From positions 66,183 through 130,182 of IMG/VR virus record IMGVR_UViG_3300032607_000125: a stretch of DNA of 64,000 bases. The stretch is one strand, 5' to 3'. Below are positions 2,253-54,607 of this stretch, in pieces. The notes beneath the pieces are model-generated. The model was not told the origin of the DNA and made no database searches. It saw nothing but the letters and a program-made list of their open reading frames with translations. How positions within the stretch are numbered: position 1 is the first letter of the stretch; each line of letters opens with the position of its first letter. The DNA is from a virus. Both the position numbers and the translations under genes were made by a program.

Positions 2253-2585
2253 ATGAAAAGCAAACCAATACTTACACCGGCAGGTCGCAAATTTGATGGT
2301 GGTAAACTTCGCTATGGACTAATACCTCCTCTTGCACAACAAGAAATGGTAAAAGTTCTTACGTTTGGTGCAGAAAAGTATGAACCTGATAATTGGAAAT
2401 ATGTTGAAGGTTCTATCACTCGCTATTTTGATGCCATGGAACGACATGTTTGGGCATGGAAAATGGGCGAAGAGTTAGATCCAGAAAGTGGAATCCACCA
2501 CTTGGCCCACGCAATGTGTTGCCTTGCATTCCTCTATGAACATGATGTGAAATATACAAAGAAAGAACCAAATGGAATTAAGTAA
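2253..2585 (+). CDS. dATP/dGTP diphosphohydrolase-like protein (DUF5664 type)
   Basis: GRKFDGGKLRY, GAEKY..DNW, RYFDAMERH, ESG.HHLAHAMC motifs. Confidence 0.8.
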   Translation: MKSKPILTPAGRKFDGGKLRYGLIPPLAQQEMVKVLTFGAEKYEPDNWKYVEGSITRYFDAMERHVWAWKMGEELDPESGIHHLAHAMCCLAFLYEHDVKYTKKEPNGIK

Positions 2586-3228
2586 AGAAACCCTGTCGTT
2601 GATCAAGAACTTCGCTGGCATTAATGGCAGTCTGATGCTTAAGCAGGGAAATAAGTTGTCCACAATCTCAGAAGGAAAGAACATCATGGCAGAAGTGTCA
2701 ATTGATGAAGACTTTCCAATGGATTTTGGAATTTACGATTTGAATGAATTCCTAAATGTCGTATCGCTGTTCCCAAGCACTCAACTTGACTTCAATGAGA
2801 AGTATGTCATGGTGTCTGATGGTGGTACCAGCAAGATTAAATACTTTGCTGCAGGTGATGGTGTTGTTAAATCCGCGCCTTCTACGATTAAGTTTCCACA
2901 AGCCGATGTTGAGTTTACAATTGATGCAGCTCAACTGGCAATGATTCTTAAAACCTCTTCAGCATTGAAGGCAAGTGACTTGTCTATTGTTGGTGACGGA
3001 AGTACTCTTAAAGTTCTAGTGTCTGATAAAAAGAATGATACTTCGAATGCATATGAAGTTACTATTGGCAAGACCAATGAAACCTTTAAAGCTAATCTTA
3101 AAGTAGAAAATCTTAAGATGCTTCCCGGCGACTACGAAGTTTCTATCTCTAAAAAGAAAATCTCCCGCTTTAAAAGCACTACTGATCTCACATACTTTGT
3201 CGCTGTTGAAGCTGACTCGGAGTTCTAA
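2572..3228 (+). CDS. gp45: Sliding clamp
   Basis: MELSKETLSLIKNFAGIN, FGIYDLNEFL, YFVAVE; upstream of the clamp loader. Confidence 0.95.
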   Translation: MELSKETLSLIKNFAGINGSLMLKQGNKLSTISEGKNIMAEVSIDEDFPMDFGIYDLNEFLNVVSLFPSTQLDFNEKYVMVSDGGTSKIKYFAAGDGVVKSAPSTIKFPQADVEFTIDAAQLAMILKTSSALKASDLSIVGDGSTLKVLVSDKKNDTSNAYEVTIGKTNETFKANLKVENLKMLPGDYEVSISKKKISRFKSTTDLTYFVAVEADSEF

Positions 3229-3359
3229 TGGGCGAAGGTGCATTTAGAGGACTTGGTGAAGCATTTGTAATTGGCTTTATCCTTCTCTGCACACTAGGTT
3301 TTTTGGAAATTAGTGGACATTGTTATTTGGCTGTTTCAACACGTGAGCATTAATATATT

Positions 3360-32867: not shown

Positions 32868-33404
32868 GTGATCCCAATGCAGTACGATAAAATTTACATA
32901 AGTATAATAGAACAAGCAAAATCTAGACAATTAGACGGATATAGTGAAAAACATCATATTATTCCACGTTGTTTAGGTGGAATAGACGATAAATCTAACC
33001 TAGTTGCGCTTACATATAGAGAACACTTTGTATGCCATAAACTTTTATGTAAGATGTATCCCGGAAATCTTAAGCTTATTTGTGCTATATCTTTTATGAT
33101 ATACTCTTCTAAAAAGAATAAGCGCTTGATAAACTTAAAGGATTTTGATTATGTGAAGCGTATGTTAGCTCCTCATATGGGATCATGGAATAAAGGTAGA
33201 GAACCATGGAATAAAGGTTTGAAAGGTGATGATTTTAAATCTAAAAATCCTAATCATAGTAAACCTCCAAGCATGATTGGTTATAAATGGATAAACAACG
33301 TAACTGAACAAACAAAACTAGCGCCAACTAAAGAATTACCAAATGGATGGACCTATGGTAGAATAGACAATAGAGGCGATAATAATGGAATGAGAAAAAA
33401 ATGA
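32868..33404 (+). mobile_element. MobE-like HNH homing endonuclease splitting nrdA
   Basis: EKHHIIPRCLGG.D..SNLV.LT.REHF..H; late promoter TATAAATA at 32839. Confidence 0.9.
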
Positions 33405-44124: not shown

Positions 44125-45414
44125 ATGATATTACAAATCCTTAATGAATTAGCAGCAACTTCCTCTCGCCTTGAGAAGGAAGCTATCATCCGTCGTGAAA
44201 AAGACAATATGCTTTTGAAGCGTGTTTACTTCCTTGCGTATGATCCATTCACTCAATTTTACCAACGTAAGATTCCAGCGTATACACCTGCTCAAGCGAA
44301 TCAAGCAGACTCGCTTGATTCTGTACTTGATAGTTTGGCTATGTTGTCTACGCGTCAAGTTACTGGTAATGCCGCTATTGGATACTTAACAAAACTCTTA
44401 AGTTCACTCGTTGAACGCGATGCTCAAGTGATTGAACGTATCATTGGCAAAGATCTTAAGTGTGGTGCTTCTGATTCAACGGCTAATAAAATTTGGCCTG
44501 GTCTTGTACACGAATATCCTTGCATGCTTGCATCTAAGTATGATGAAAAACTTGTCGCTAAAATCAAATGGCCAGCGATGGCACAATTGAAGATGGATGG
44601 TATGCGATTCAATGCTATCGTTAAAGATGGCAAGTGTGAATTTCGTACACGTAATGGCAAGGAAGTAAATCTGCTGGGTAATCTTGAGCAAGAATTTATT
44701 GCTTTAGCTAAAGATAAGAATGTTATCTTTGATGGTGAGTTAGTCGTACTCAGTGAAGATGGAATGTCTTATCTTGATCGACAAACTGGTAATGGTATTC
44801 TAAACAAAGCTGTTAAGGGAACCATCACTGCTAAAGATACTAGTCAAGTTAGTGCAACACTATGGGATATCATTGATTATGAAGACTTTCATAATGGTGT
44901 ATCAAATCAGTCTTACCACTTGAGATTTAACAAGCTTGAACTGATGCCTTTGGATTCTGGTAAAATTAGGCGTGTTGCTAGTCAGACTATCAATAACATT
45001 GAAGAAGCTCGAGAGATATTTGAACAATATTTGTCTGAAGGCCAAGAAGGTATTATTCTTAAAGACTTGAATAATATTTGGGAAAACAAGCGTTCACGTG
45101 GTCAAATCAAAATGAAAGGTGAACTTGAATGTGATCTTAAAATCGTTGGCATTCAAGAAGGCACTGGAAAATACGTTGGTAAAGTTGGTGCATACATTTG
45201 TGAATCAGAAGATGGTATCATTAAAGTTGATGTAGGTTCTGGTTTTAAAGATCATCAGCGTATCATTGATCAAAGTGTAATCGGTAAAGTGATTGCAGTT
45301 AAATATAATGCACGTATTAAAAATCGTCAGGGTGGTGATTCTCTTTTTCTCCCAATTTTTCTCGAAGTACGTGAAGATAAAAAAGTTGCAGATAATGCAA
45401 AAGAAATTGAATAG
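44125..45414 (+). CDS. gp30: ATP-dependent DNA ligase
   Basis: QLKMDGMR, FDGEL, EGIILK, VGSG, FLP.F. Confidence 0.95.
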   Translation: MILQILNELAATSSRLEKEAIIRREKDNMLLKRVYFLAYDPFTQFYQRKIPAYTPAQANQADSLDSVLDSLAMLSTRQVTGNAAIGYLTKLLSSLVERDAQVIERIIGKDLKCGASDSTANKIWPGLVHEYPCMLASKYDEKLVAKIKWPAMAQLKMDGMRFNAIVKDGKCEFRTRNGKEVNLLGNLEQEFIALAKDKNVIFDGELVVLSEDGMSYLDRQTGNGILNKAVKGTITAKDTSQVSATLWDIIDYEDFHNGVSNQSYHLRFNKLELMPLDSGKIRRVASQTINNIEEAREIFEQYLSEGQEGIILKDLNNIWENKRSRGQIKMKGELECDLKIVGIQEGTGKYVGKVGAYICESEDGIIKVDVGSGFKDHQRIIDQSVIGKVIAVKYNARIKNRQGGDSLFLPIFLEVREDKKVADNAKEIE

Positions 45415-45459
45415 TAACGTTTGAAACGTATATATAAGTAATACAACAAAAGAAGTAAC

Positions 45460-45555
45460 ATGCTTTCACTCCTATCTTATCGCAAAAATATATTCTTAGG
45501 TCTTAATGACCAGAGTATTGCGTGCCCGTTCACATTTGAAGGTTGGGACGATTAG
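45460..45555 (+). CDS. Candidate leader peptide (31 aa)
   Basis: MLSLLSYRKNIFLGLNDQSIACPFTFEGWDD; stop codon overlaps the antiterminator arm; SD weak. Confidence 0.55.
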   Translation: MLSLLSYRKNIFLGLNDQSIACPFTFEGWDD

Positions 45556-45617
45556 AGCTTAGAAGTTACGTATGTACTTAAAGCTCTAACCTAAAAAGTT
45601 AGAGCTTTTGTTTTTTG
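45552..45617 (+). terminator. Attenuator: terminator 45580-45617 with competing antiterminator 45552-45560/45581-45589
   Basis: aaagctctaac/gttagagcttt 11-bp stem plus T-tract; upstream ttagagctt is a perfect 9-nt complement of the 5' arm. Confidence 0.75.
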
Positions 45618-45659
45618 TAGTGTACAATAAATCATAGATGGTGTATAATACATCTATCA

Positions 45660-45700
45660 GCAGATTAATCTTAGTCTGCATAAAAGATTCTTTAACAATT
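45660..45700 (+). promoter_or_regulatory. Hairpin + rrn-like boxA antitermination site
   Basis: gcagat/gtctgc hairpin then ATTCTTTAACAATT, between an early promoter and tRNA-Gln. Confidence 0.6.
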
Positions 45701-45715
45701 CAGGTTTTCTTATGT

Positions 45716-45793
45716 TGGGGTGTAGCCTAGTCCGGTCTAAGGCAACGGTCTTTGAAATCGTCATCATTGGTTCGAATCCAATCACCCCTGCCA
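45716..45793 (+). tRNA. tRNA-Gln(TTG)
   Basis: Cloverleaf, loop CT-TTG-AA, TTCGAAT, CCA. Confidence 0.92.
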
Positions 45794-45874
45794 TATAAAA
45801 ACACATTGGGCTTGATGCAAATCATCGCGGGTATAGTGCTCTCCGAGCCGCGGACTAGAGTGTGTTTCTATATG
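45791..45874 (+). repeat. Stem-loop element H1 (family H1-H5)
   Basis: ccatataaaaacacat ... gtgtgtttctatatg terminal inverted repeat. Confidence 0.65.
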
Positions 45875-45882
45875 ATATTTTT

Positions 45883-45972
45883 GGAGATATGGATGAGTGG
45901 CTTAAATCAACGGTTTGCTAAACCGTCGCTGGGTAAATCTGGCCGCAGGTTCGAATCCTGCTATCTCCGCCA
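45883..45972 (+). tRNA. tRNA-Ser(GCT)
   Basis: Long variable arm, TT-GCT-AA, G73, CCA. Confidence 0.93.
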
Positions 45973-45978
45973 AACATC

Positions 45979-46053
45979 GCGACTATAGCATAGTGGTAGT
46001 GCCGAGAACTCATAATTCTTAAGGGGTAGGTTCGAATCCTACTGGTCGCACCA
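45979..46053 (+). tRNA. tRNA-Met/Ile2(CAT)
   Basis: CT-CAT-AA, paired G1-C72 (not initiator), CCA. Confidence 0.88.
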
Positions 46054-46071
46054 ATTTTAAAAAGGAAGTTT

Positions 46072-46632
46072 ATGTCTACAGTATTAGCATTAGATGCAAC
46101 AGGACTTCCACGTAAATGGATCAACTATGAAGATGCTATTTCATATTTTGCAAAAGATATGGTGGTGTGGACATTAGGTGAAACTGTTGCAACATTTCGT
46201 GGAGGTATTCAAAATGACGGTGAGATGTCGGTGCTTAGCACTCCATCTATTATCGCTGTTCGTGGTAAAGGATTCTCCATAGAAAAAGCTGGTACAGTAG
46301 CACTGACTAATAAGATTTTGTTCGCTAGAGATAGAAACATTTGTGCTTATTGCGGTGGCTCCTTTACTAACAATCATTTGTCTAGAGATCACGTTCATCC
46401 TGTTTCACGGGGTGGACAAGACGTTTGGACTAACGTAGTAAGTGCATGTGTAAAGTGCAACACTCATAAGAGTGCTAAGCTTTTAAAAGAATGTGGATTA
46501 GAACTTTTATACGTTCCCTACGTTCCATCGCACTACGAAAATATGATTCTGCAAAATAGAAACATATTAGCAGATCAAATGAATTATCTGATGAGTGGTG
46601 TTCCAAAGCACAGTAGAATTCGATTAAATTAA
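46072..46632 (+). CDS. HNH endonuclease (McrA-like, two CxxC)
   Basis: RD...CAYCG, DHV.P.SRGG, NVV.AC..CN..K. Confidence 0.88.
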   Translation: MSTVLALDATGLPRKWINYEDAISYFAKDMVVWTLGETVATFRGGIQNDGEMSVLSTPSIIAVRGKGFSIEKAGTVALTNKILFARDRNICAYCGGSFTNNHLSRDHVHPVSRGGQDVWTNVVSACVKCNTHKSAKLLKECGLELLYVPYVPSHYENMILQNRNILADQMNYLMSGVPKHSRIRLN

Positions 46633-46637
46633 TTAAC

Positions 46638-46715
46638 GTACAGGTGCCCGAGAGGTCCAAGGGAACTGATTGCAAACCAGTAAAACCATGAGTTCAAATC
46701 TCATTCTGTACTCCA
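46638..46715 (+). tRNA. tRNA-Cys(GCA)
   Basis: TT-GCA-AA, U73 discriminator, CCA. Confidence 0.88.
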
Positions 46716-46847
46716 AATGACCATTTTAGGGCATAAACACCCTATATGAATCAACAACTTAGACACCTCAAAGTGACGTACGTTCATACTTCCCACGAAG
46801 ATGTATGGATACCCGCTTTGAGGTCTTTCAGGCACCTGAGGGACGGC

Positions 46848-46906
46848 AAACAACGGTGTACATTAATTAGAAGTTGTGGTATAATTGATCTATCAAAACA
46901 AAGGAT
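46848..46906 (+). repeat. 59-bp promoter cassette, copy 1 (identical copy at 47103-47161)
   Basis: aaacaacggtgtacattaattagaagttgtggtataattgatctatcaaaacaaaggat occurs twice. Confidence 0.9.
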
Positions 46907-46912
46907 AGAAAA

Positions 46913-47104
46913 ATGACTCGTAAATCTAAAGACATTGTCAACATTGTTGACGGCGTTAAAGTTACAATCTGTGCTTATCGTGGACCTCGTTTCAATGAAC
47001 AAACGTTCGATGTAAACAAGAGTCGTTACACAGCTTGGCATCAAGGTGTCAAGAACTATGAGCATGGCACCCGTGGAGTTCAAGGAACTGTAACAAGTTT
47101 GTAA
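46913..47104 (+). CDS. Small early protein
   Basis: Follows cassette copy 1. Confidence 0.65.
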   Translation: MTRKSKDIVNIVDGVKVTICAYRGPRFNEQTFDVNKSRYTAWHQGVKNYEHGTRGVQGTVTSL

Positions 47105-47166
47105 ACAACGGTGTACATTAATTAGAAGTTGTGGTATAATTGATCTATCAAAACAAAGGATCCATT

Positions 47167-47448
47167 ATGAAAAAAGTTAGAACAGACGCTTATATGTTTA
47201 CAGCAGATCCTCTGTGTGTAGGTGATATGCAAATGATTGAAACAGTTCGTAAGACAATTGCGATTGTGAACAAACAAGCAAACATTATTGCTAAATGGTC
47301 ACAGCAACCTGCAAAATTGTTTAGAGTTTGTTTGAAAGCGCGCTTGGGTAAGGGAAATCCTCTTTCTGAGAAATATAAAAATCAGTGGATTAAAAGCATT
47401 AAGCTTGAAGATGCACGCACAATAGACGTATACGTACAACGTCGTTAA
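47167..47448 (+). CDS. Small early protein
   Basis: Follows cassette copy 2; ATG 47167. Confidence 0.65.
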   Translation: MKKVRTDAYMFTADPLCVGDMQMIETVRKTIAIVNKQANIIAKWSQQPAKLFRVCLKARLGKGNPLSEKYKNQWIKSIKLEDARTIDVYVQRR

Positions 47449-47509
47449 TGTTAGTAAAATAACGGTGTACAAATAATAAAGAATGTGGTATAATTACTAC
47501 ATAAACTAG

Positions 47510-47550
47510 GAAAGATCATCGAATCTTTTCACAATAGTTCTTTAACAATT
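47510..47550 (+). promoter_or_regulatory. Hairpin + rrn-like boxA antitermination site
   Basis: gaaagat/atctttt hairpin then GTTCTTTAACAATT (47537-47550), between an early promoter and tRNA-Glu. Confidence 0.65.
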
Positions 47551-47565
47551 CAAGTTTCTTATTTT

Positions 47566-47640
47566 ACTGCTATCGTCTATCGGTTAGGACACTAGGTTTT
47601 CAACCTGGTAAGCGGGGTTCAACTCCCCGTAGCAGTACCA
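47566..47640 (+). tRNA. tRNA-Glu(TTC)
   Basis: TT-TTC-AA, CCA. Confidence 0.9.
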
Positions 47641-47728
47641 TATTAAAGCACATTAGATTCCTTTTACTCTGCCCTCTGCACCTAGTGCCACTGGCGGATT
47701 AGATTTCTTTTAGTGTGCTCTAATATGG
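47638..47728 (+). repeat. Stem-loop element H2
   Basis: ccatattaaagcacat ... gtgtgctctaatatgg. Confidence 0.65.
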
Positions 47729-47777
47729 TAATGAAGGACTAATTACCCTTCACCATAATCGGGAGTCATGAACCGAT

Positions 47778-47861
47778 GAACTCGTAGTCATCTAATGGTA
47801 AGGTAGGCCCGATTATGGGGCCGCATGCAGGTTTCGAAATCCTGTCTACAATGAGTTCGCA
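47778..47861 (+). pseudogene. tRNA-like element with non-canonical loops
   Basis: D arm TAATGGTAA, ggccc/gggcc stem with loop GATTATG, 9-nt T loop, extended acceptor stem, no CCA. Confidence 0.5.
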
Positions 47862-47930
47862 TATACAAACATACTTAACCGCCCATGTTGCACCTAGTGC
47901 GTGAAGGATCCGAGAGTATGTTTCTATATG
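47860..47930 (+). repeat. Stem-loop element H3
   Basis: catatacaaacatac ... gtatgtttctatatg; shares internal tgcacctagtgc with H2. Confidence 0.65.
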
Positions 47931-47943
47931 TTTTAAAAAGATT

Positions 47944-48018
47944 GCGGCATTCATATAACGGTCATTATCTCGGATTGTCTATCCGAAGACGGGAGTTCGA
48001 CTCTCCCATGTCGCGCCA
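47944..48018 (+). tRNA. tRNA-Asp(GTC)
   Basis: TT-GTC-TA, G73, CCA. Confidence 0.92.
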
Positions 48019-48145
48019 GTATTAGTTGGATTGATCATCCAAGATAGTAAACGCTAACCGTCGTGGCCACCCGGCGGTTCTTGCAGTGTTATACTGCTAC
48101 GAAAAGGCGGGGTAAGAGTCCCGATATAGGGTGTGCTAGTAATTT

Positions 48146-48221
48146 GGGGGATTAGCTCAGCTGGGAGAGCAATTGCTTTGCAAGCAATAGGTCAACGGTT
48201 CGATCCCGTTATCCTCCACCA
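48146..48221 (+). tRNA. tRNA-Ala(TGC)
   Basis: G3:U70, TT-TGC-AA, CCA. Confidence 0.95.
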
Positions 48222-48229
48222 AGTTTTAA

Positions 48230-48301
48230 GCGGGTTGTTTGTGGAATACGTTTAGCCTTCCAAGCTGAAAGATGCAGGTTCGAATCCTGTAGCCCGCTCC
48301 A
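48230..48301 (+). tRNA. tRNA-Gly(TCC) with a shortened D arm
   Basis: CT-TCC-AA, U73, CCA; only 72 nt. Confidence 0.8.
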
Positions 48302-48356
48302 GTAACTCTCCCTTGTATGCGGAGTATAATATGATAAGTAGTATACAAACGAATTA

Positions 48357-48441
48357 GCCCCGATGGTGGAATTGGTAGACATCCCGGTCTTAGAAGCCGG
48401 CGCCGAAAGGCATGCGAGTTCGAATCTCGCTTGGGGCACCA
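48357..48441 (+). tRNA. tRNA-Leu(TAG)
   Basis: CT-TAG-AA, long variable arm, CCA. Confidence 0.93.
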
Positions 48442-48585
48442 AAGCAGCGTATAGGTTACATTATTCAGTATGAGCAACAGGGTACCTAGGTAAATCCTTG
48501 GGCGGGCAATAGTACGTACATCAATGTAACAGGTGGTAGTGATCTACTTCGGACGAAGACCTCAAAACTTCGTCTACTAAATTTA

Positions 48586-48677
48586 GGAAAGTAATGCAGC
48601 GGGGTTGGTCCTGCGACCAGCCTTGAAAACTGGGTTCTCTTAATCGGGATGGGGTTCGACTCCTCTGCTTTCCGCCA
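48586..48677 (+). tRNA. tRNA-Ser(TGA)
   Basis: CT-TGA-AA, long variable arm, G73, CCA. Confidence 0.88.
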
Positions 48678-48685
48678 ATGTTTAT

Positions 48686-48761
48686 GTTGTCGTTAGTGTA
48701 ATGGTTAGCACCAGAGATTGTGAATCTCTTAGCATGGGTTCGAATCCCATACGTCAACCCA
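48686..48761 (+). tRNA. tRNA-His(GTG)
   Basis: G-1:C73, TT-GTG-AA, CCA. Confidence 0.92.
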
Positions 48762-48762
48762 T

Positions 48763-48838
48763 ACAACTTTAGCTGATGTGGTCATAGCGGTGTCTTGAAG
48801 CGGCATTGAAGCAGGTTCGATTCCTGCAGGTTGTACCA
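48763..48838 (+). tRNA. tRNA-Phe(GAA)
   Basis: TT-GAA-GC loop, wobble-rich anticodon stem, CCA. Confidence 0.78.
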
Positions 48839-48903
48839 AAAGTTTTGATAGTGTCGTAGATTTTGCATTAGTAGTTTAAGCAGAGGAATACATTATCAAT
48901 CAT

Positions 48904-48978
48904 TGCCTTATAGCTCAGAGGAAGAGCAAACGCTTGATAAGCGTTAGGTCGACATTTCGAAATTGTCTAAGGCAACCA
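48904..48978 (+). tRNA. tRNA-Ile(GAT)
   Basis: TT-GAT-AA, CCA. Confidence 0.9.
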
Positions 48979-48984
48979 ATTTAA

Positions 48985-49019
48985 TGGACTGAAACTTTAA
49001 GGTGAAGTAATTGGCTTTA
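48985..49019 (+). pseudogene. 5' half of a tRNA (Lys-like), broken at the anticodon loop
   Basis: tggactg-aa-actt-taaggtg-aagt-a-attgg-cttt, followed directly by a late promoter. Confidence 0.6.
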
Positions 49020-49051
49020 TTATATAAATACATAAACTATAAGGAATATGT

Positions 49052-49654
49052 ATGGAAAAATGTAAATTTTGCGCAAAATTGGGATTTAAGAATTTAAAAA
49101 TTCATGAAAGACAATGCAAAGAAAACGTTAATAGAACTTGTGCTATTGGTCATAAAGGCGGAAACCACTTTACTACTGGTAAATCTAAAACACATTCTGA
49201 TTTTACTAAAAATAAAATGAGCCAATCACAATTGGGGAAAGCTCATACAGAAGAGACTAAGAAAAAGTTATCAATTATACGAAAATTATATTTAGAAAAT
49301 AATCCAGATAAAGTTCCATATCTTTTAAACCATTCTTCAAAGATAAGTTATCCTGAACAATATTTTATTGATTGTTTTATTAATGATGTTGATGCTAAAT
49401 TTCAACATCATGTTTATAGATATAAATTAGATTTTGCCAATGTCAAAGAAAAATTATACTTTGAAATTGATGGTGAGCAACATTATAATGATAAAAGAAT
49501 TGTTGAACACGATATCAAAAGAACTCAAAAGTTAAATGAAATGGGATGGACATGTTTTAGATTGAGATGGTCTCATTTTCAAAAGTTAAACGAAGAAGAA
49601 AAAAAACAAAAAGTTTTAGAGATACGATTTATGATGAAATGGTATCATAGTTGA
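49052..49654 (+). mobile_element. Homing endonuclease, Zn knuckle + NUMOD3 + Vsr/DUF559-like nuclease
   Basis: CKFC, HTEETKKKLS, SYPEQ, LDF...EIDGEQH...D..R...GW..FR. Confidence 0.85.
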
Positions 49655-49698
49655 CTTTTAATCAACCTTTCCCAGTTCGAATCTGGGTGAATCGACCA
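49625..49698 (+). tRNA. tRNA-Lys(TTT), overlapping the endonuclease 3' end
   Basis: cgattta/tgaatcg acceptor, atga/tcat D stem, CT-TTT-AA, CCA. Confidence 0.88.
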
Positions 49699-49847
49699 AG
49701 TTTTGTTTATGTGTGTATGGTAATACCTTATGTGAATGCGGACCCATTTTTCATCCGGCTGCATTGTACTCGAAGCCCATAGCAGTAGGTGTCGAGCCTA
49801 TTGGTGATTGACTGAAAATATAGATCACAGTGAACAAATTAATTTTC

Positions 49848-49932
49848 GGAGTAGAAGCATCAATGGTGATGCAGAAGGCTGTAACCCTTCCGCCCTCGGG
49901 CACGCCTGGTTCGATCCCAGGATACTCCACCA
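49848..49932 (+). tRNA. tRNA-Tyr(GTA)
   Basis: CT-GTA-AC, long variable arm, CCA. Confidence 0.9.
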
Positions 49933-50085
49933 GTCAAACGATAGTGCGCACTATCTAACGGTTGTAAGTGACGATGAGTTATATCGGAACTTTCACTATT
50001 TTATTCCTGAGTTTAGCGGGTTTTGCGCAGACCTTGCCAATGTTAGTAACGTGCTATGCGATGAGCACCTTAGGAGCCAGTTTAT

Positions 50086-50160
50086 TCCCCAGTAGCACAG
50101 CGGTAGTTGCGCAACACTGTTAATGTTGATGTCGTACGTTCGATCCGTACCTGGGGAGCC
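50086..50160 (+). tRNA. tRNA-Asn(GTT), CCA not encoded
   Basis: CT-GTT-AA, G73 followed by CCC. Confidence 0.88.
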
Positions 50161-50199
50161 CTTCGGTTGAAGTACAAAATACTTCAACCACAATTTAAT

Positions 50200-50274
50200 G
50201 CGTCTGTAGTATAATGGATAATATTCTAGGCTACGAACTTAGTAATGGTGGTTCGATTCCATCCAGACGCACCA
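50200..50274 (+). tRNA. tRNA-Arg(ACG)
   Basis: CT-ACG-AA, CCA. Confidence 0.92.
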
Positions 50275-50284
50275 AGTATTTTAT

Positions 50285-50360
50285 AACTCAGTAGCTCAAT
50301 TGGCAGAGCACTTCCTTCATACGGAATAGGTTTCCAGTTCGAGTCTGGACTTCACGACCA
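50285..50360 (+). pseudogene. Pseudo-tRNA (CAT) with an unpaired acceptor stem
   Basis: Intact D, anticodon and T arms and CCA, but aactcag cannot pair with cttcacg; anticodon arm identical to the tRNA at 51689. Confidence 0.65.
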
Positions 50361-50368
50361 GTTTTATT

Positions 50369-50442
50369 GCCCTTGTATCCTTAATGGTAGAGGTGTCCTG
50401 TTTTGTAAGCAGGGTGCGGAGGTTCGATTCCTTCCTGGGGCA
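50369..50442 (+). tRNA. tRNA-Thr(TGT), CCA not encoded
   Basis: TT-TGT-AA; acceptor has one mismatch. Confidence 0.75.
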
Positions 50443-50501
50443 CTGGTAATACTGTAAAAAAGATGACTAAACGAAATAGTTATCTTCAAAAATATAAATT
50501 A

Positions 50502-50575
50502 GCCTCGGTAGTTTAATGGTAGAACGTCGTCTTTACATGGCGAATACGGGAGTTCAATTCTCCAACGAGGTACCA
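50502..50575 (+). tRNA. tRNA-Val(TAC)
   Basis: TT-TAC-AT, CCA. Confidence 0.85.
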
Positions 50576-50583
50576 ATATTATA

Positions 50584-50618
50584 GGAGGTCGGGATTTCAA
50601 AATTCCCCCCGGACACCA
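50584..50618 (+). pseudogene. 3'-half tRNA remnant
   Basis: Variable loop ggaggtc, T-arm-like stem, ...ggacacca; no 5' half. Confidence 0.45.
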
Positions 50619-50789
50619 GAATATAAATTAGTCTATTAGCCAACTGATAGATTAACTATGATGACTTTGTATGCCGAAGAACCGTGCATGCATTAAAAAA
50701 GTGGTATAGTCCACAACGGTCTGTCTATCAACTTCACATGTACTTTAAATCGTACATGTGATATAATTAATCTTTAATAGGAATATATA

Positions 50790-50939
50790 ATGAAACCAAC
50801 CAAGAACTTTAAGATGTCCAGCACTACTAAAACACTGTTGGCGTCTATTGCCGATAAAGATGTCTATAACCTTTTTAAAGCAAACATGGTTCAAGCTCAA
50901 CTGGCTTCAGAAATTAAACCAGCAAAAGAAAAGAAATAA
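50790..50939 (+). CDS. Small basic protein (49 aa), not in the ORF track
   Basis: MKPTKNFKMSSTTKTLLA...; early promoter at 50739 and AGGA RBS. Confidence 0.65.
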   Translation: MKPTKNFKMSSTTKTLLASIADKDVYNLFKANMVQAQLASEIKPAKEKK

Positions 50940-50945
50940 ATATAA

Positions 50946-51016
50946 CGCGGGGATTCAGGTGATCGGTCAGTCTCATAAGCTCGACCTAGAAGTTTCGAAT
51001 ACTTCCTCCGCAACCA
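50946..51016 (+). tRNA. tRNA-fMet(CAT)-like, degenerate D and anticodon arms
   Basis: C1:A72 mismatch, CT-CAT-AA, CCA. Confidence 0.6.
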
Positions 51017-51028
51017 ATTAGCGTTTAT

Positions 51029-51310
51029 TTGCAAAGTTCTTATGAAATAAAATTTGCAACTTTATTAGATGAATTGAACATTGAATGGTCTAGACCGGAT
51101 CCATTAACGTGGATAGATGATAACGGTGGTGATCATAGATATTATCCAGATTTTTTAGTTGGTAATATCTACATAGATATGAAAAATGACTATTTAGCAA
51201 TTAAAGATAAACCTAAAATTGATACAGTAAGACACCAAAATAAAGTTGATATTAGGATAGTAACAAAAGATTTTATAACAAAAGATTATATTTTAGCTCT
51301 TAAAGCATAG
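51029..51310 (+). pseudogene. N-terminally truncated TnsA-like PD-(D/E)XK endonuclease
   Basis: SSYE, RYYPDF, IDMKN; no good start or RBS; ends inside tRNA-Thr. Confidence 0.65.
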
Positions 51311-51370
51311 ATGGCGATGTACCGGTTTTGTAATCCGGTTAGTAGGGTTCAAGTCCTTGTGAGAGCACCA
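51296..51370 (+). tRNA. tRNA-Thr(TGT), overlapping the endonuclease 3' end
   Basis: gctctta/tgagagc acceptor, TT-TGT-AA, CCA. Confidence 0.88.
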
Positions 51371-51378
51371 TAACAAAA

Positions 51379-51417
51379 GTTCCGGGTGTGGGAGTTCGAT
51401 TCTCTCCTGGGGCACCA
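51379..51417 (+). pseudogene. 3'-half tRNA remnant
   Basis: gggag-ttcgat-tctct T arm, cctggggc-a-cca. Confidence 0.6.
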
Positions 51418-51502
51418 TATTAAAATACATAAAGTGAGTTAGCTTTAGGCTTTCCACCTATACATAGCAATCGCCGGACCTATGTTGTGTATTTCAATAT
51501 GG
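51415..51502 (+). repeat. Stem-loop element H4
   Basis: ccatattaaaatacat ... gtgtatttcaatatgg. Confidence 0.65.
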
Positions 51503-51553
51503 CAAAACTATTTAAGTACAATGGTCACACGCCCTTGCTTAAATTTGAAGTTG

Positions 51554-51678
51554 TCATATTAGAACTTTATTGACGTGCATAACTTGCAAGTTGCGCAAGA
51601 CCTGTGTGCGGTGATCTAGTAGTTGCGAACGGCTCTTGTACTAGCGAGAAAGCTTATATCGATAATGTTCTAATATGA
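51554..51678 (+). repeat. Stem-loop element H5
   Basis: tcatattagaac ... gttctaatatga. Confidence 0.55.
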
Positions 51679-51688
51679 TAATGTTCAT

Positions 51689-51764
51689 GGTAATGTAGCT
51701 TAGAGGCAAAAGCACTTCCTTCATACGGAATAGATCGTGAGTTCGAGTCTCACCATTACCACCA
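51689..51764 (+). tRNA. tRNA-Met/Ile2(CAT)
   Basis: TT-CAT-AC, paired acceptor, CCA. Confidence 0.88.
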
Positions 51765-51775
51765 TTAATTAATTT

Positions 51776-51854
51776 CCGAGCGTAGGATAGTCTGGCTCAT
51801 TCCGCCTGCTTTGGGAGCAGGATGTCGCAGGTTCAAATCCTGCCGCTCGGACCA
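51776..51854 (+). tRNA. tRNA-Pro(TGG)
   Basis: TT-TGG-GA, C1-G72, CCA. Confidence 0.93.
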
Positions 51855-51920
51855 AAATATAGTGGTGATAATTGGTATCACACTGCGTTAAATGTATAAA
51901 TAATAGTATAGGAGAAACTT

Positions 51921-52583
51921 ATGCTATTATGTAAATTTTGCAACAAAGAATGTAAAAACGAAAACTCTCAACGAAATCATCAAAGACTTTGTAAGAGTAA
52001 TGCTAATCGGCAATCAACATGGCTTGAAACCCATCGAGATCAATTGCCATCTTGGAATAAAGGTCATACTAAAGAAACTGATCCAAGGATTGCAGTTAAT
52101 GCTGCAAATACTTCCATTGGCATGAAACTAGCAATAGGCGAAGGTAGACATTCCGGTGCTTGGAATTCAGAGTATTGGACTGAAGAAGTTCGTAAAAATA
52201 AATCTGAAGAAAAAAAAGAACTTTATAGAAAATTTCCAGAAAAACATCCTAATAGAAAATTAGCTGGAAATAGAAATAAAATGACTTATCCAGAGCAAGT
52301 TGCTCATGATTGGTTGTTAGACAATAAAATATTATTCGAACCACAGAAGTTAATTGATGGAAAATATATTGACTTTTGTGTTGATAATATTGTTATTGAA
52401 ATAGATGGTGAGCATTGGCATCCAATTGGAAATACTGCAGATGCTGACCGTGATTCAAAACTAAAATCTTTGGGGTATGACGTTTATCGCATACGTAGTA
52501 AAGAAAATATACATAGTAGACTAGAAACAATTTTTAATCGCTCTTTTAGTATAAAGGCATTACAATACATTGGTAATGTATAG
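51921..52583 (+). mobile_element. Homing endonuclease, Zn knuckle + Vsr/DUF559-like nuclease
   Basis: CKFC..ECKN..S..NH..LC, TYPEQ, IDF...IEIDGEHWH, D..RD..L..LGY; late promoter at 51895. Confidence 0.85.
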
Positions 52584-52613
52584 ACGCTGGATCGTTACCA
52601 GCAAGGAGCACCA
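52540..52613 (+). tRNA. tRNA-Thr(GGT), overlapping the endonuclease 3' end
   Basis: gctcttt/aaggagc acceptor, TT-GGT-AA, atypical T loop ATCGTTA, CCA. Confidence 0.82.
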
Positions 52614-52623
52614 AGGAGTAGAT

Positions 52624-52830
52624 ATGAATCACGGCGGTAAGGGGTCTAAACCTAGACCAATCAGTGTAAGCGATATTGAATACGCAGATCGTTGGGATAC
52701 AATCTTCGGTAAAGATAAGAAACCTGAATTGAAAGAAGTAGTCGAATACGATAGTCGAAAGATGTTGACTGAAGTAGATCCTCTTCAAAAATTAGTAGAC
52801 ATATCCCAAGAATTGGGATTGTATGATTAA
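52624..52830 (+). CDS. Small conserved hypothetical protein
   Basis: GGKGSKPRP.SV...RWD.IF; AGGAG RBS. Confidence 0.7.
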   Translation: MNHGGKGSKPRPISVSDIEYADRWDTIFGKDKKPELKEVVEYDSRKMLTEVDPLQKLVDISQELGLYD

Positions 52831-52870
52831 CACGGCTTAGTCCTCTACGTAAGTACGACTGGGTTCTTTT

Positions 52871-52953
52871 ACCTGCATGGGGAAATTGGTAAACCCAGCG
52901 CACTTAAAATGCGCCACGCAAGTTTCCCGGTTCGACTCCGGGTGCAGGTACCA
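52871..52953 (+). tRNA. tRNA-Leu(TAA)
   Basis: CT-TAA-AA, variable arm, CCA. Confidence 0.92.
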
Positions 52954-52956
52954 TTT

Positions 52957-53030
52957 ATATCCATAGTGTAATGGCAACACTTTGTTCTCCAAAAGCAACA
53001 TTCTAGGTTCGAGTCCTAGTGGATATGCCA
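52957..53030 (+). tRNA. tRNA-Trp(CCA)
   Basis: CT-CCA-AA, G73, CCA. Confidence 0.88.
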
Positions 53031-53514
53031 ATCATAAGAGTCCTGGACACGCGGACTTTAAAATGAGGTGGATGTAAGTGGAATCCTTACAACTAATAAA
53101 TAAATTATGACACTTATAAAATACAGAGATGCTGGTATGGCAACATACACTTGGTTCTGGGTTGACTCTGAAACTAAACATCAAGTAAGTCCATATTTTG
53201 ATTCTGAAAAAGACGCAAATAAATGGGCAAATAGTGCATAACTGAATCTTGTTTTATATGAATAAATCTATCAAGGGAACTTGGTAACGCTTACAGTGGC
53301 GAATCACTGTGGCAAGTGGAACACTTCCACAATATGTTATGACTACACTTAATGATATGAAGGGTCACTTCATTATACCTATCGCAATGAATAAAACATA
53401 TTGAGTCGTTCGTCACGGGATCGTAACTGACCGCACCAGGGAATCTGGAATTAACCAGTGCACTTTATAGACATATGAAGTTACGAACAAATAGCAGTAG
53501 ATGTATTGCTTTTC

Positions 53515-53548
53515 AAAGGGAATCTTCGGATTCCCTTTGTCGTTTTAT
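53515..53548 (+). terminator. Intrinsic terminator closing the tRNA region
   Basis: caaagggaatc-ttcg-gattccctttg then tcgtttt. Confidence 0.8.
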
Positions 53549-53559
53549 ATAAGTAATGT

Positions 53560-53871
53560 ATGGCAATAAAACCACCCACACCTACAGCCGCAGCAGGCAG
53601 ATATAAAGAACATGCATGTCCAAAGTGTAATGTATTGCACAGAGGTCGGGGACCATATTGCACTAAATCATGTGCTAATCTTGATCGCAGTGAAGAAGTT
53701 AAAAAGAAACTTAGTGATACTAAGAAGTATGGCGATAAGGGTCAACTAGCAACATGGGAACTAAACTGGGGTATAGATTATGAGCCTATCATAGCTGGAC
53801 CGCCCGTGGGGCTAAATGATAATCAATTCGTTGAAGGTGGCGATGTTTGGACTTCAGATGACTCTTGGTGA
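53560..53871 (+). CDS. Small zinc-binding hypothetical protein
   Basis: CPKC...YC..SCAN, RSEE.KKKLS. Confidence 0.65.
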   Translation: MAIKPPTPTAAAGRYKEHACPKCNVLHRGRGPYCTKSCANLDRSEEVKKKLSDTKKYGDKGQLATWELNWGIDYEPIIAGPPVGLNDNQFVEGGDVWTSDDSW

Positions 53872-53911
53872 ATTATAAATAGAATAATATGAAAGTTTTA
53901 CTGGAGATCAC

Positions 53912-54607
53912 ATGCCGTTAGCAAGAGGTTTATCACAATTAGCAGGTTTAATTACTATCGATGGAAATGATGTAATTATGAATGGTGCGCTGGGTGCAAC
54001 AAATTTAATAGGAAATAATACTGGCGATGAAACACTAGCAACTATCAAGAGCAAGTTGGGTGTTACAACCCTCAGTGGTACTAACACTGGGGACCAAATC
54101 ATCCCAACAACTTTGCCAGCCTCTGACGTCTATGCATGGGCAAAGGCAACAATAAAGCCAACTTACTACGCCGCAGACGTTGGCTTGGGCAGTGTTGATA
54201 ACACTTCAGACTTAGCCAAGCCAGTCAGCACAGCCCAAGCCGAGGCAAACACCGCAGTTCAAAACGCAGCAGCCTCAGACGCCACAAGCAAAGCCAATGC
54301 TCGGCAAGCTACCCTAGTCTCTGGCACAAACATTCGTACAGTGAATGGTCAATCTGTGTTAGGCACTGGAGACTTGACTATCTCATCTAGTTCAGTGACA
54401 ATGAGTACAACTGTACCGAATACTCCATCATCTGGAGACCAATGGTGGGACTCTACAGAAGGCGCATTATATATTTATTATGATGATGGTGATTCTCTAC
54501 AGTGGGTTCCTTCTACAAATAATTTTGCTGGTCCAGTTGCAAGCACTACAGAATCAGTCGGAATCACTACAGGTAAATCAATTGCAATGGCAATTGTATT
54601 CGGATAA
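53912..54607 (+). CDS. Tail-fibre-like protein
   Basis: VGLG.VDNTSD..KPVSTAQ, LVSGTNIRT.NG, P..GD.WW...G.LY.YY.D motifs; late promoter at 53874. Confidence 0.75.
   Translation: MPLARGLSQLAGLITIDGNDVIMNGALGATNLIGNNTGDETLATIKSKLGVTTLSGTNTGDQIIPTTLPASDVYAWAKATIKPTYYAADVGLGSVDNTSDLAKPVSTAQAEANTAVQNAAASDATSKANARQATLVSGTNIRTVNGQSVLGTGDLTISSSSVTMSTTVPNTPSSGDQWWDSTEGALYIYYDDGDSLQWVPSTNNFAGPVASTTESVGITTGKSIAMAIVFG

Follow-up and report, generated by a model that had tools for sequence, protein, structure and literature searches.

The 64,000-nt stretch analysed here, referred to as the window, forms the right half of an IMG/VR virus contig of 130 kb (record IMGVR_UViG_3300032607_000125); in it, three endonuclease open reading frames (ORFs) lie within a tRNA array and terminate inside the tRNA gene that follows them. 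These ORFs, here called HEG1, ORF2 and HEG3, are probably free-standing homing-endonuclease cassettes of tRNA arrays, accompanied by a broken piece of the target tRNA and by a divergent tRNA of the same isoacceptor. Termination inside a downstream tRNA had been predicted for all three and was confirmed, the overlaps measuring 30, 15 and 44 nt (Table 1); tRNA-Lys encodes the last 10 codons and the stop of HEG1, and tRNA-Thr(GGU) the last 14 codons of HEG3. A presence/absence polymorphism with exact boundaries, a criterion for homing endonucleases, was found at the HEG1 and ORF2 sites, and a common layout recurs in ~35 related cassettes, drawn from metagenomes, viral contigs and cultured phages.

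Resident tRNA genes at the insertion sites

Contigs of two lake metagenomes (X6 and X7) were placed on the region, and this comparison with endonuclease-free alleles revealed that the orphan tRNA pieces of HEG1 and ORF2 are parts of intact resident tRNA-Lys and tRNA-Thr genes. At the HEG1 site, one X7 contig passes from 49018 through 39 nt to 49699 and encodes an intact tRNA-Lys(UUU) with 7/7 acceptor pairs, and a loose end in X6 agrees with it. Because this contig bridges the site, we conclude that HEG1 together with the type B tRNA-Lys (680 nt) replaces the 3′ 39 nt of the resident tRNA-Lys. At the ORF2 site, contigs of both metagenomes link 51020 with 51382 by 39 nt, and the result is an intact tRNA-Thr(UGU) that uses the 3′ orphan of the window; since they bridge 51020-51382, ORF2 and its tRNA-Thr replace the resident 5′ half. 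The endonuclease-plus genotype was present unchanged in X5, a viral metagenome of another study.

Both orphan 5′ halves that had been noted upstream of the long ORFs proved to be real and were identified as tRNA-Lys(UUU) and tRNA-Pro(UGG). Bases 48986-49018 match positions 2-34 of the tRNA-Lys(UUU) of locus L008 at 31 of 33 bases (local score 58, shuffle maximum 36), whilst the type B tRNA-Lys at 49625 differs throughout from the orphan and from type A and resembles the alleles of L013, L041 and L026. The Pro orphan at 51856-51889 breaks just before the anticodon. Alignment alone is not significant for this piece; its core, TGGTATCACNCTGCGTT, which ends at U33, recurs in 12 viral contigs as part of intact tRNA-Pro(UGG) genes, and the orphan 5′ of the homologue in L083 is identical to one such gene from position 1 to U33. 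Between the window and L083, the upstream block carrying the orphan is ~90% identical and the ORF ~70%, and homology ends exactly at tRNA +1.

The original prediction held that each cassette invades a tRNA gene and supplies an inseparable replacement; linkage to a complete tRNA of the same isoacceptor is supported for HEG1 and ORF2 but not for HEG3, since the tRNA-Thr(GGU) that HEG3 overlaps is not its replacement. HEG3 had been taken to invade tRNA-Thr(GGU), yet the gene invaded is a tRNA-Pro: 12 of the 14 full-length homologues in its subfamily read 10-15 nt into tRNA-Pro(UGG), and this junction is kept at 45-65% protein identity. Judged from a nearly identical tRNA-Thr(GGU) in L008, which no endonuclease ORF overlaps, the tRNA-Thr(GGU) of the window is a bystander. 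In the subfamily, the endonuclease gene normally stands between a Pro orphan on its 5′ side and a divergent tRNA-Pro on its 3′ side; the window departs from this order, with the divergent tRNA-Pro at 51776 lying upstream of the orphan and HEG3 running into tRNA-Thr(GGU). At this site, tRNA-Pro and tRNA-Thr(GGU) are directly adjacent in the relatives L013, L025 and L041; contigs of X6 and X7 give no cover over HEG3. The arrangement is probably a secondary rearrangement, which could for instance have arisen via a tandem copy as in the amplification driven by the T4 endonuclease SegB (PMC13096335).

Table 1. Positions of the cassette components and associated tRNA features in the window.
Feature	Position	Strand	Remarks
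Orphan 5′ half of tRNA-Lys(UUU), allele type A	48985-49018	+	Broken within anticodon after CTTT
TATAAATA, T4-late-promoter-like motif of HEG1 cassette	49023-49030	+	
HEG1	49052-49654	+	200 aa, ending ...IRFMMKWYHS; stops inside tRNA-Lys(UUU)
tRNA-Lys(UUU), complete, allele type B, linked to HEG1	49625-49698	+	ARAGORN; Rfam 60.3 bits
Degenerate tRNA-Met-like	50945-51016	+	Local match to tRNA-Met 31-77, score 46 vs shuffle maximum 40; directly 5′ of ORF2
ORF2	51029-51310	+	93 aa, TTG start, ending ALKA; stops inside tRNA-Thr(UGU)
tRNA-Thr(UGU) no. 2, complete, linked to ORF2	51296-51370	+	Rfam 44.1 bits (gathering score 29); missed by ARAGORN
Orphan 3′ half of tRNA-Thr(UGU), positions 39-75 plus CCA	51381-51417	+	Score 58 vs 32; missed in the original prediction
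tRNA-Pro(UGG), complete, divergent D-arm of endonuclease-associated type	51776-51854	+	ARAGORN; D-arm compared with orphans and other cassettes' downstream tRNA-Pro
Orphan 5′ part of tRNA-Pro(UGG)	51856-51889	+	D-arm, anticodon stem, U32-U33; acceptor part decayed
TATAAATA plus 13-bp hairpin burying HEG3 ribosome-binding site and AUG	51895-51930	+	Hairpin 51900-51930, its 5′ arm starting inside the motif
HEG3	51921-52583	+	220 aa, ending ...RSFSIKALQYIGNV; stops inside tRNA-Thr(GGU)
tRNA-Thr(GGU), unusual GGATCGTTACC T-loop	52540-52613	+	ARAGORN; Rfam 55.5 bits

Recurrence of the layout and the endonuclease family

The layout shared by the related cassettes runs from the 5′ half of a tRNA, interrupted in its anticodon loop, through (T/C)ATAAATA and the endonuclease gene, to a complete divergent tRNA, which is usually of the same isoacceptor and which the ORF runs into or against. 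It was seen with Lys, Pro, Met, Thr and Arg tRNAs. The genomic context of HEG3 homologues was taken from viral and metagenome locus scans, and each of the 20 viral loci that a search with the HEG3 N-terminus detected belongs to a tRNA cluster. Among these and related loci, the ORF stops 10-25 nt inside the next tRNA in L083, L084, L088, L089, L090 and L098 and reads through an entire tRNA-Met in L096 and L097; further stops inside the next tRNA occur in L133-L138, L140-L144, L146 and two cultured phages, F25 and Bhz51.

The 5′ orphans that reach significance break off at tRNA positions 32-36, shortly before (T/C)ATAAATA, and the distance from the break to the ATG is 31-38 nt where measured. 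They comprise the Lys orphan of the window and those of Pro (L083, L133, L134, L136, L139, L142, L143), Met (L097, L175) and Thr (L095), and orphan and downstream tRNA are of the same isoacceptor in ~12 of 16 cases. Orphans of tRNA-Pro are of the canonical type, whereas in the linked tRNA-Pro genes the D-stems are altered and the acceptor strands do not pair with the orphan. 3′ orphans, of Thr in the window and of Ile in L090, come after the linked tRNA. In L092-L094, a tRNA-Met is split by the gene, the two acceptor halves being complementary, and in-silico excision of the gene from L092 restores the tRNA-Met call; these loci may represent a simple insertion state of the family. The gene concerned (L092 2433-3205, also in L093 and L094) is of the endonuclease-I type and has no adjacent spare tRNA-Met.

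Cultured phages carry the same arrangement. A gene of Escherichia phage vB_Eco_F25 (Tequatrovirus), annotated "endonuclease I" and present in 5 of 706 T4-like records, extends 38 nt into tRNA-Arg(UCU), its stop TAA being T36-A37-A38 of the tRNA; an upstream piece ending CTTCT resembles an Arg(UCU) 5′ orphan when read by eye, unscored. Stenotrophomonas phage vB_SmaM_Bhz51 (OR797040; L183 901-1554) has a 217-aa zinc-finger/endonuclease-I-like ORF that reaches 33 nt into tRNA-His and is unannotated in the record, and an endonuclease gene of Rhizobium phage RHph_TM2_3B lies flush against tRNA-Met. Because T4-like coliphages such as vB_Eco_F25 carry this layout, the proposed model can be tested at the bench.

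Across all fetched loci, we surveyed the 84 distinct ORFs that are 120 aa or longer and are located no more than 500 nt upstream of a same-strand tRNA. The overlap, originally proposed to recur, was present in 19 of the 84 at lengths of 4-44 nt; another 22 end 0-10 nt short of the tRNA, and the interval 11-50 nt short of it contains the stops of only 4. As stops pile up at the 5′ edge of the tRNA (19 + 22 vs 4 of 84), the junction pattern exceeds chance. Overlaps of 10 nt use as TAG stop the near-universal tRNA U8-A9-G10. Conservation of the overlap itself did not hold up, for after a conserved ...RLxEIF end the tRNA-encoded tails vary in length and sequence. Given these variable tails and the L008 tRNA-Thr(GGU) that stands free of any overlap, the overlap is best described as read-through into whichever tRNA follows, with no conserved peptide.

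On profile and alignment evidence, the three ORFs belong to one modular homing-endonuclease family with an N-terminal C2H2 zinc finger, a putative NUMOD3 part and a C-terminal nuclease that differs in type. The nuclease types first proposed were retained for HEG1 and HEG3, which are Vsr/DUF559-type, and revised for ORF2, which is T7-endonuclease-I-like rather than specifically TnsA-like. Pfam DUF559 (Vsr-like) is matched by HEG1 at E = 9.2e-11 and by HEG3 at E = 4.4e-8. HEG1 additionally matches NUMOD3 just at the Pfam cut-off (E = 3.7e-4) and PDB 3HRL (E = 0.0012), and its homologues in L082, L175 and L177 also adjoin tRNAs. The L082 homologue (2327-3230), beside a tRNA-Lys, is apparently frameshifted, with a stop at 2938 after which the other frame continues via a helix-turn-helix-like tail, again into tRNA-Lys.

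HEG3 has 117 homologous protein clusters. Residues E160, D162, H167, D174 and D178 are invariant across 30 of its homologues, and its N-terminus gives a weak Pfam C2H2 zinc-finger match (E = 0.017), the finger being conserved in alignments. A profile of the HEG3 subfamily (A3) matched PDB entries 3R3P (I-Bth0305I, the EDxHD prototype) at E = 1.9e-4 and 3HRL at E = 2.7e-6; phmmer with the single HEG3 sequence found no match in PDB, 3R3P being reached by the profile only, and tblastn of HEG3 against phages found none. Relatives in viral contigs found via the N-terminus have in common the zinc finger CKFCNKECKNxNSxxNHERLC and carry one of three nucleases, Vsr-like, PD-(D/E)xK or HNH. The PD-(D/E)xK type is T7-endonuclease-I-like: its family profile (A4) matches T7 endonuclease I (1M0D) at E = 1.9e-9, and 7 of its 15 members match Pfam Phage_endo_I (best 5.5e-10), with the motif E...PDF...E/DxK. 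ORF2 alone matches Phage_endo_I at E = 0.0038, under the cut-off. Since its alignment to full-length members (A1) covers only the C-terminal nuclease domain, ORF2 is a remnant that lacks the N-terminus. Alignment A1, which spans all nuclease types, was too diverse as a seed for locus searches, and a search with L091 contributed little.

Proposed mechanism, expression and competing explanations

In the homing reading that we favour, the endonuclease reading frame has no stop codon of its own and ends at the first in-frame stop inside the linked tRNA. The enzyme would cut a sensitive allele of the tRNA gene in a co-infecting phage near the anticodon, and repair of the break would copy the cassette. 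The orphan half might provide homology that travels with the cassette, keep a binding site for the enzyme, or do both; the divergent linked tRNA would be immune and keep decoding capacity, and the zero-spacer or overlapping junction would ensure absolute linkage of nuclease and immune tRNA.

Several points weigh against this proposal. Roughly half of the cassettes have no significant orphan, HEG3 breaks the layout rule by reading into tRNA-Thr(GGU) with its tRNA-Pro upstream, and the endonuclease-free alleles all come from contigs of a single study, the contig that bridges the Lys site having a depth of 4.8. Immunity of the linked tRNA is predicted from its divergence only. The homology breakpoint marks the insertion site, the cleavage site being a predicted one, and free-standing endonucleases can cleave away from the point of insertion. 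A right-hand homology arm inside the tRNA is also unlikely, because the HEG1-linked tRNA-Lys and the type A 3′ half share almost no sequence. A more far-reaching version sees autonomous tRNA-gene-replacing cassettes, whose 5′ half would be homology arm, binding site or both and whose linked tRNA would be immune, with repeated homing forcing turnover and recoding of tRNAs, mainly in their D-arms, and with the overlapping subset coupling endonuclease synthesis to tRNA processing. This version is conceivable as a whole but, in our estimation, somewhat improbable.

The overlap had also been read as adaptive in itself: RNase P, cutting at tRNA +1, would remove the stop codon and leave a non-stop mRNA to be rescued and degraded, thereby limiting the endonuclease. 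Some ~25 cassettes do lack a stop codon before the tRNA, and where such ORFs stand in tRNA arrays headed by sigma-70-like promoters, processing of the precursor must cut at the ORF ends. We nevertheless think self-limitation by RNase P unlikely, as the ORFs of many family members end 0-10 nt ahead of the tRNA, the tRNA-encoded tails vary as described, and a separate, well-precedented control is present, namely a hairpin that covers the ribosome-binding site (RBS) and AUG and whose 5′ arm contains a late promoter. Since the tails are unconserved and so many members stop just short of the tRNA, the overlap itself looks like a by-product of a zero-spacer junction rather than a designed regulator.

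Evidence for the separate control comes from the upstream regions. The promoter-like motif that had been claimed for both long ORFs was confirmed, TATAAATA lying at 49023-49030 ahead of HEG1 and at 51895-51902 ahead of HEG3; ORF2 has no promoter motif. Across the whole window, TATAAATA is not enriched (10 copies vs 6.5 expected). Of 33 cassettes, 20 have (T/C)ATAAATA no more than 60 nt from the ATG, vs 7 of 118 control ORFs. The HEG3 hairpin has a minimum free energy of -21.2 kcal/mol (z = -3.55), with equally stable shuffles in 0 of 200, and the fold upstream of HEG1 is not significant (z = -0.07). An RBS-hiding hairpin design was found in 9 of 27 cassettes vs 2 of 44 control ORFs, and the F25 cassette has an ATAAATA hairpin with z = -7. 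Translation of the T4 genes for I-TevI, lysozyme and soc is confined to late transcripts, which begin within the RBS-sequestering hairpin at an internal late promoter. The design predicted for the cassettes resembles that of these genes, TATAAATA being placed in the 5′ arm of a hairpin burying RBS and AUG, as also in F25. None of ten window ORFs tested is a T4 gp55-like late sigma factor. Putative expression control by an RBS/AUG hairpin and a late-type promoter is better supported than self-limitation by RNase P.

The arrangement might instead be incidental debris, in which recombination of the array leaves random orphans and deletions fuse neighbours, with no tRNA-specific homing. This we consider quite improbable, given that the same break position (32-36) and the same distance to the ATG recur across subfamilies and nuclease types, that orphan and linked tRNA match in isoacceptor far above chance, that the tRNA-Pro junction of the HEG3 subfamily persists despite extensive protein divergence, and that the presence/absence alleles have exact boundaries, even though the array is highly rearranged between relatives, degenerate tRNAs also lie away from endonuclease genes (50290-50351) and SegB-driven amplification makes segB-tRNA fusions by microhomology (PMC13096335). 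An integrase-driven, tRNA-targeting element was likewise considered and rejected, the only ORF of the cassette being the endonuclease and mostly the 5′ half being duplicated.

I-Ssp6803I is a PD-(D/E)xK endonuclease of a group I intron that is inserted in the anticodon loop of tRNA-fMet, and splicing restores the tRNA. Carriage of the present ORFs by similar self-splicing introns would suit their insertion point in the anticodon loop and the flanks of the L092 ORF, which is bounded by the 5′ and 3′ pieces of one tRNA-Met and is the sole locus with matching flanks. It is nonetheless extremely improbable and was rejected: Rfam finds no intron family in window positions 45000-54000 or in 12 loci, the ORF occupies all but ~40 nt of the insert, a complete tRNA rather than a 3′ exon follows in the window, and the acceptor strands of the orphans fail to pair with the 3′ strands downstream. 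The cassettes differ from I-Ssp6803I in that no ribozyme was found here and that a second, divergent tRNA copy would keep tRNA function.

Known systems and the surrounding array

Cleavage by T4 SegB falls within tRNA genes and drives preferential transmission of the T4 tRNA region (PMC2330249); the enzyme is a free-standing GIY-YIG nuclease encoded in the tRNA cluster and statistically associated with tRNAs across phages, and in amplified T6 mutants the 3′ end of segB is fused to a tRNA 5′ end (PMC2330249, PMC13096335). The sections consulted of these two papers do not describe orphan 5′ halves, a linked same-isoacceptor tRNA or a stop inside the tRNA for SegB. Like SegB, the cassettes are free-standing endonuclease genes in a phage tRNA array, and their layout may be a variant of SegB-like tRNA-targeted homing. 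They are not members of the SegB family, the SegB nuclease being GIY-YIG whereas the ORFs here are EDxHD or endonuclease-I-like, and Pfam finds no GIY-YIG domain in any of the three. SegB also recognises a T-psi-C motif (GGTTCRANTCC), whereas the junctions here lie at the anticodon loop.

The T-arm of tRNA-Thr(GGU) at 52588-52600 reads GGATCGWTACC, with A54 and U58 swapped relative to the canonical GGTTCRANYCC. This swapped T-loop occurs in 20 of 642 tRNAs of the fetched loci, across 11 isotypes, and the type A allele of tRNA-Lys without an endonuclease has it too; tRNAs that carry it might evade SegB-like enzymes recognising GGTTCRANTCC.

The EDxHD family includes I-Bth0305I and Hef, and its described members lie in group I introns, between split-intein halves or beside protein genes (PMC3239194, PMC2677866). 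HEG1 and HEG3 resemble them in their Vsr-like domain, invariant E/D/H/D residues, candidate N-terminal NUMOD-type region and distribution in phages and metagenomes, but differ in being inside tRNA genes, with no intron and with a C2H2 zinc finger. Homing endonucleases usually spare their host by hiding in introns or inteins or by sitting between genes; the cassettes appear to represent a third way, an intron-less insertion into an RNA gene that brings a working, presumably immune spare. The atp6 gene of Allomyces offers a parallel, in which a mobile mitochondrial endonuclease ORF brings a substitute gene end and the displaced part is left as a pseudogene. As there, the endonuclease gene moves with a substitute for the displaced part of the host gene, but atp6 is a protein gene of an organelle with another enzyme family, whereas the present host gene encodes a tRNA, for which the spare is an entire tRNA of another allele. 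Orphan halves, linked tRNAs and in-tRNA stops were not found in the literature on SegB and the EDxHD family, of which our coverage was incomplete, and earlier descriptions may exist.

If correct, the proposal would explain scrambled phage tRNA arrays, the coexistence of sharply different alleles of one tRNA in related phages, and array ORFs that butt against or into tRNAs, which tRNA-masking gene callers may miss, as with Bhz51. Phage tRNAs are tools of counter-defence (PMC13096335), so that an element which moves and swaps them could affect phage-host conflicts.

Public runs containing the region are freshwater and lake metagenomes, and megablast of the region against GenBank phages gave tRNA-sized matches only. 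The array spans 45716-53030, 3′ of a DNA ligase gene (44125-45414), and holds 23 tRNAs by ARAGORN, to which Rfam adds tRNA-Thr(UGU) at 51296-51367 (44.1 bits) and a partial tRNA at 50290-50351. Its blocks begin with sigma-70-like promoters bearing an extended -10. An identical 59-nt repeat at 46848-46906 and 47103-47161 carries a promoter-like site, GTGTACA...TGTGGTATAAT, and related copies lie at 45620, 47465 and 50738.

The partial tRNA at 50290-50351 is degenerate and tRNA-Met-like (42.8 bits, model positions 6-65; ~74% identity to tRNA-Met 51689), and the tRNA-Met-like sequence at 50945-51016 drew no ARAGORN or Rfam call. Of the two tRNA-Thr(UGU) genes, no. 1 (50369-50443) is without the encoded CCA end that its neighbours have, and no. 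2 has a U31-U39 mismatch. Contigs of X6 and X7 skip 50275-50585, with the degenerate Met, Thr no. 1 and a tRNA-Val, and the block is therefore variable in the population.

A fourth endonuclease gene, of the HNH type (46072-46632, 186 aa), lies between tRNA-Met and tRNA-Cys and stops 5 nt before the latter, with no orphan tRNA half 5′ of it. Its position is kept in every relative that reaches that far, with the stop 1-6 nt before tRNA-Cys or, in L004, 4 nt inside it. The phage genome contains many homing endonuclease genes, among them a phrog_655 gene (32868-33404) placed between two halves of the ribonucleotide reductase large subunit.

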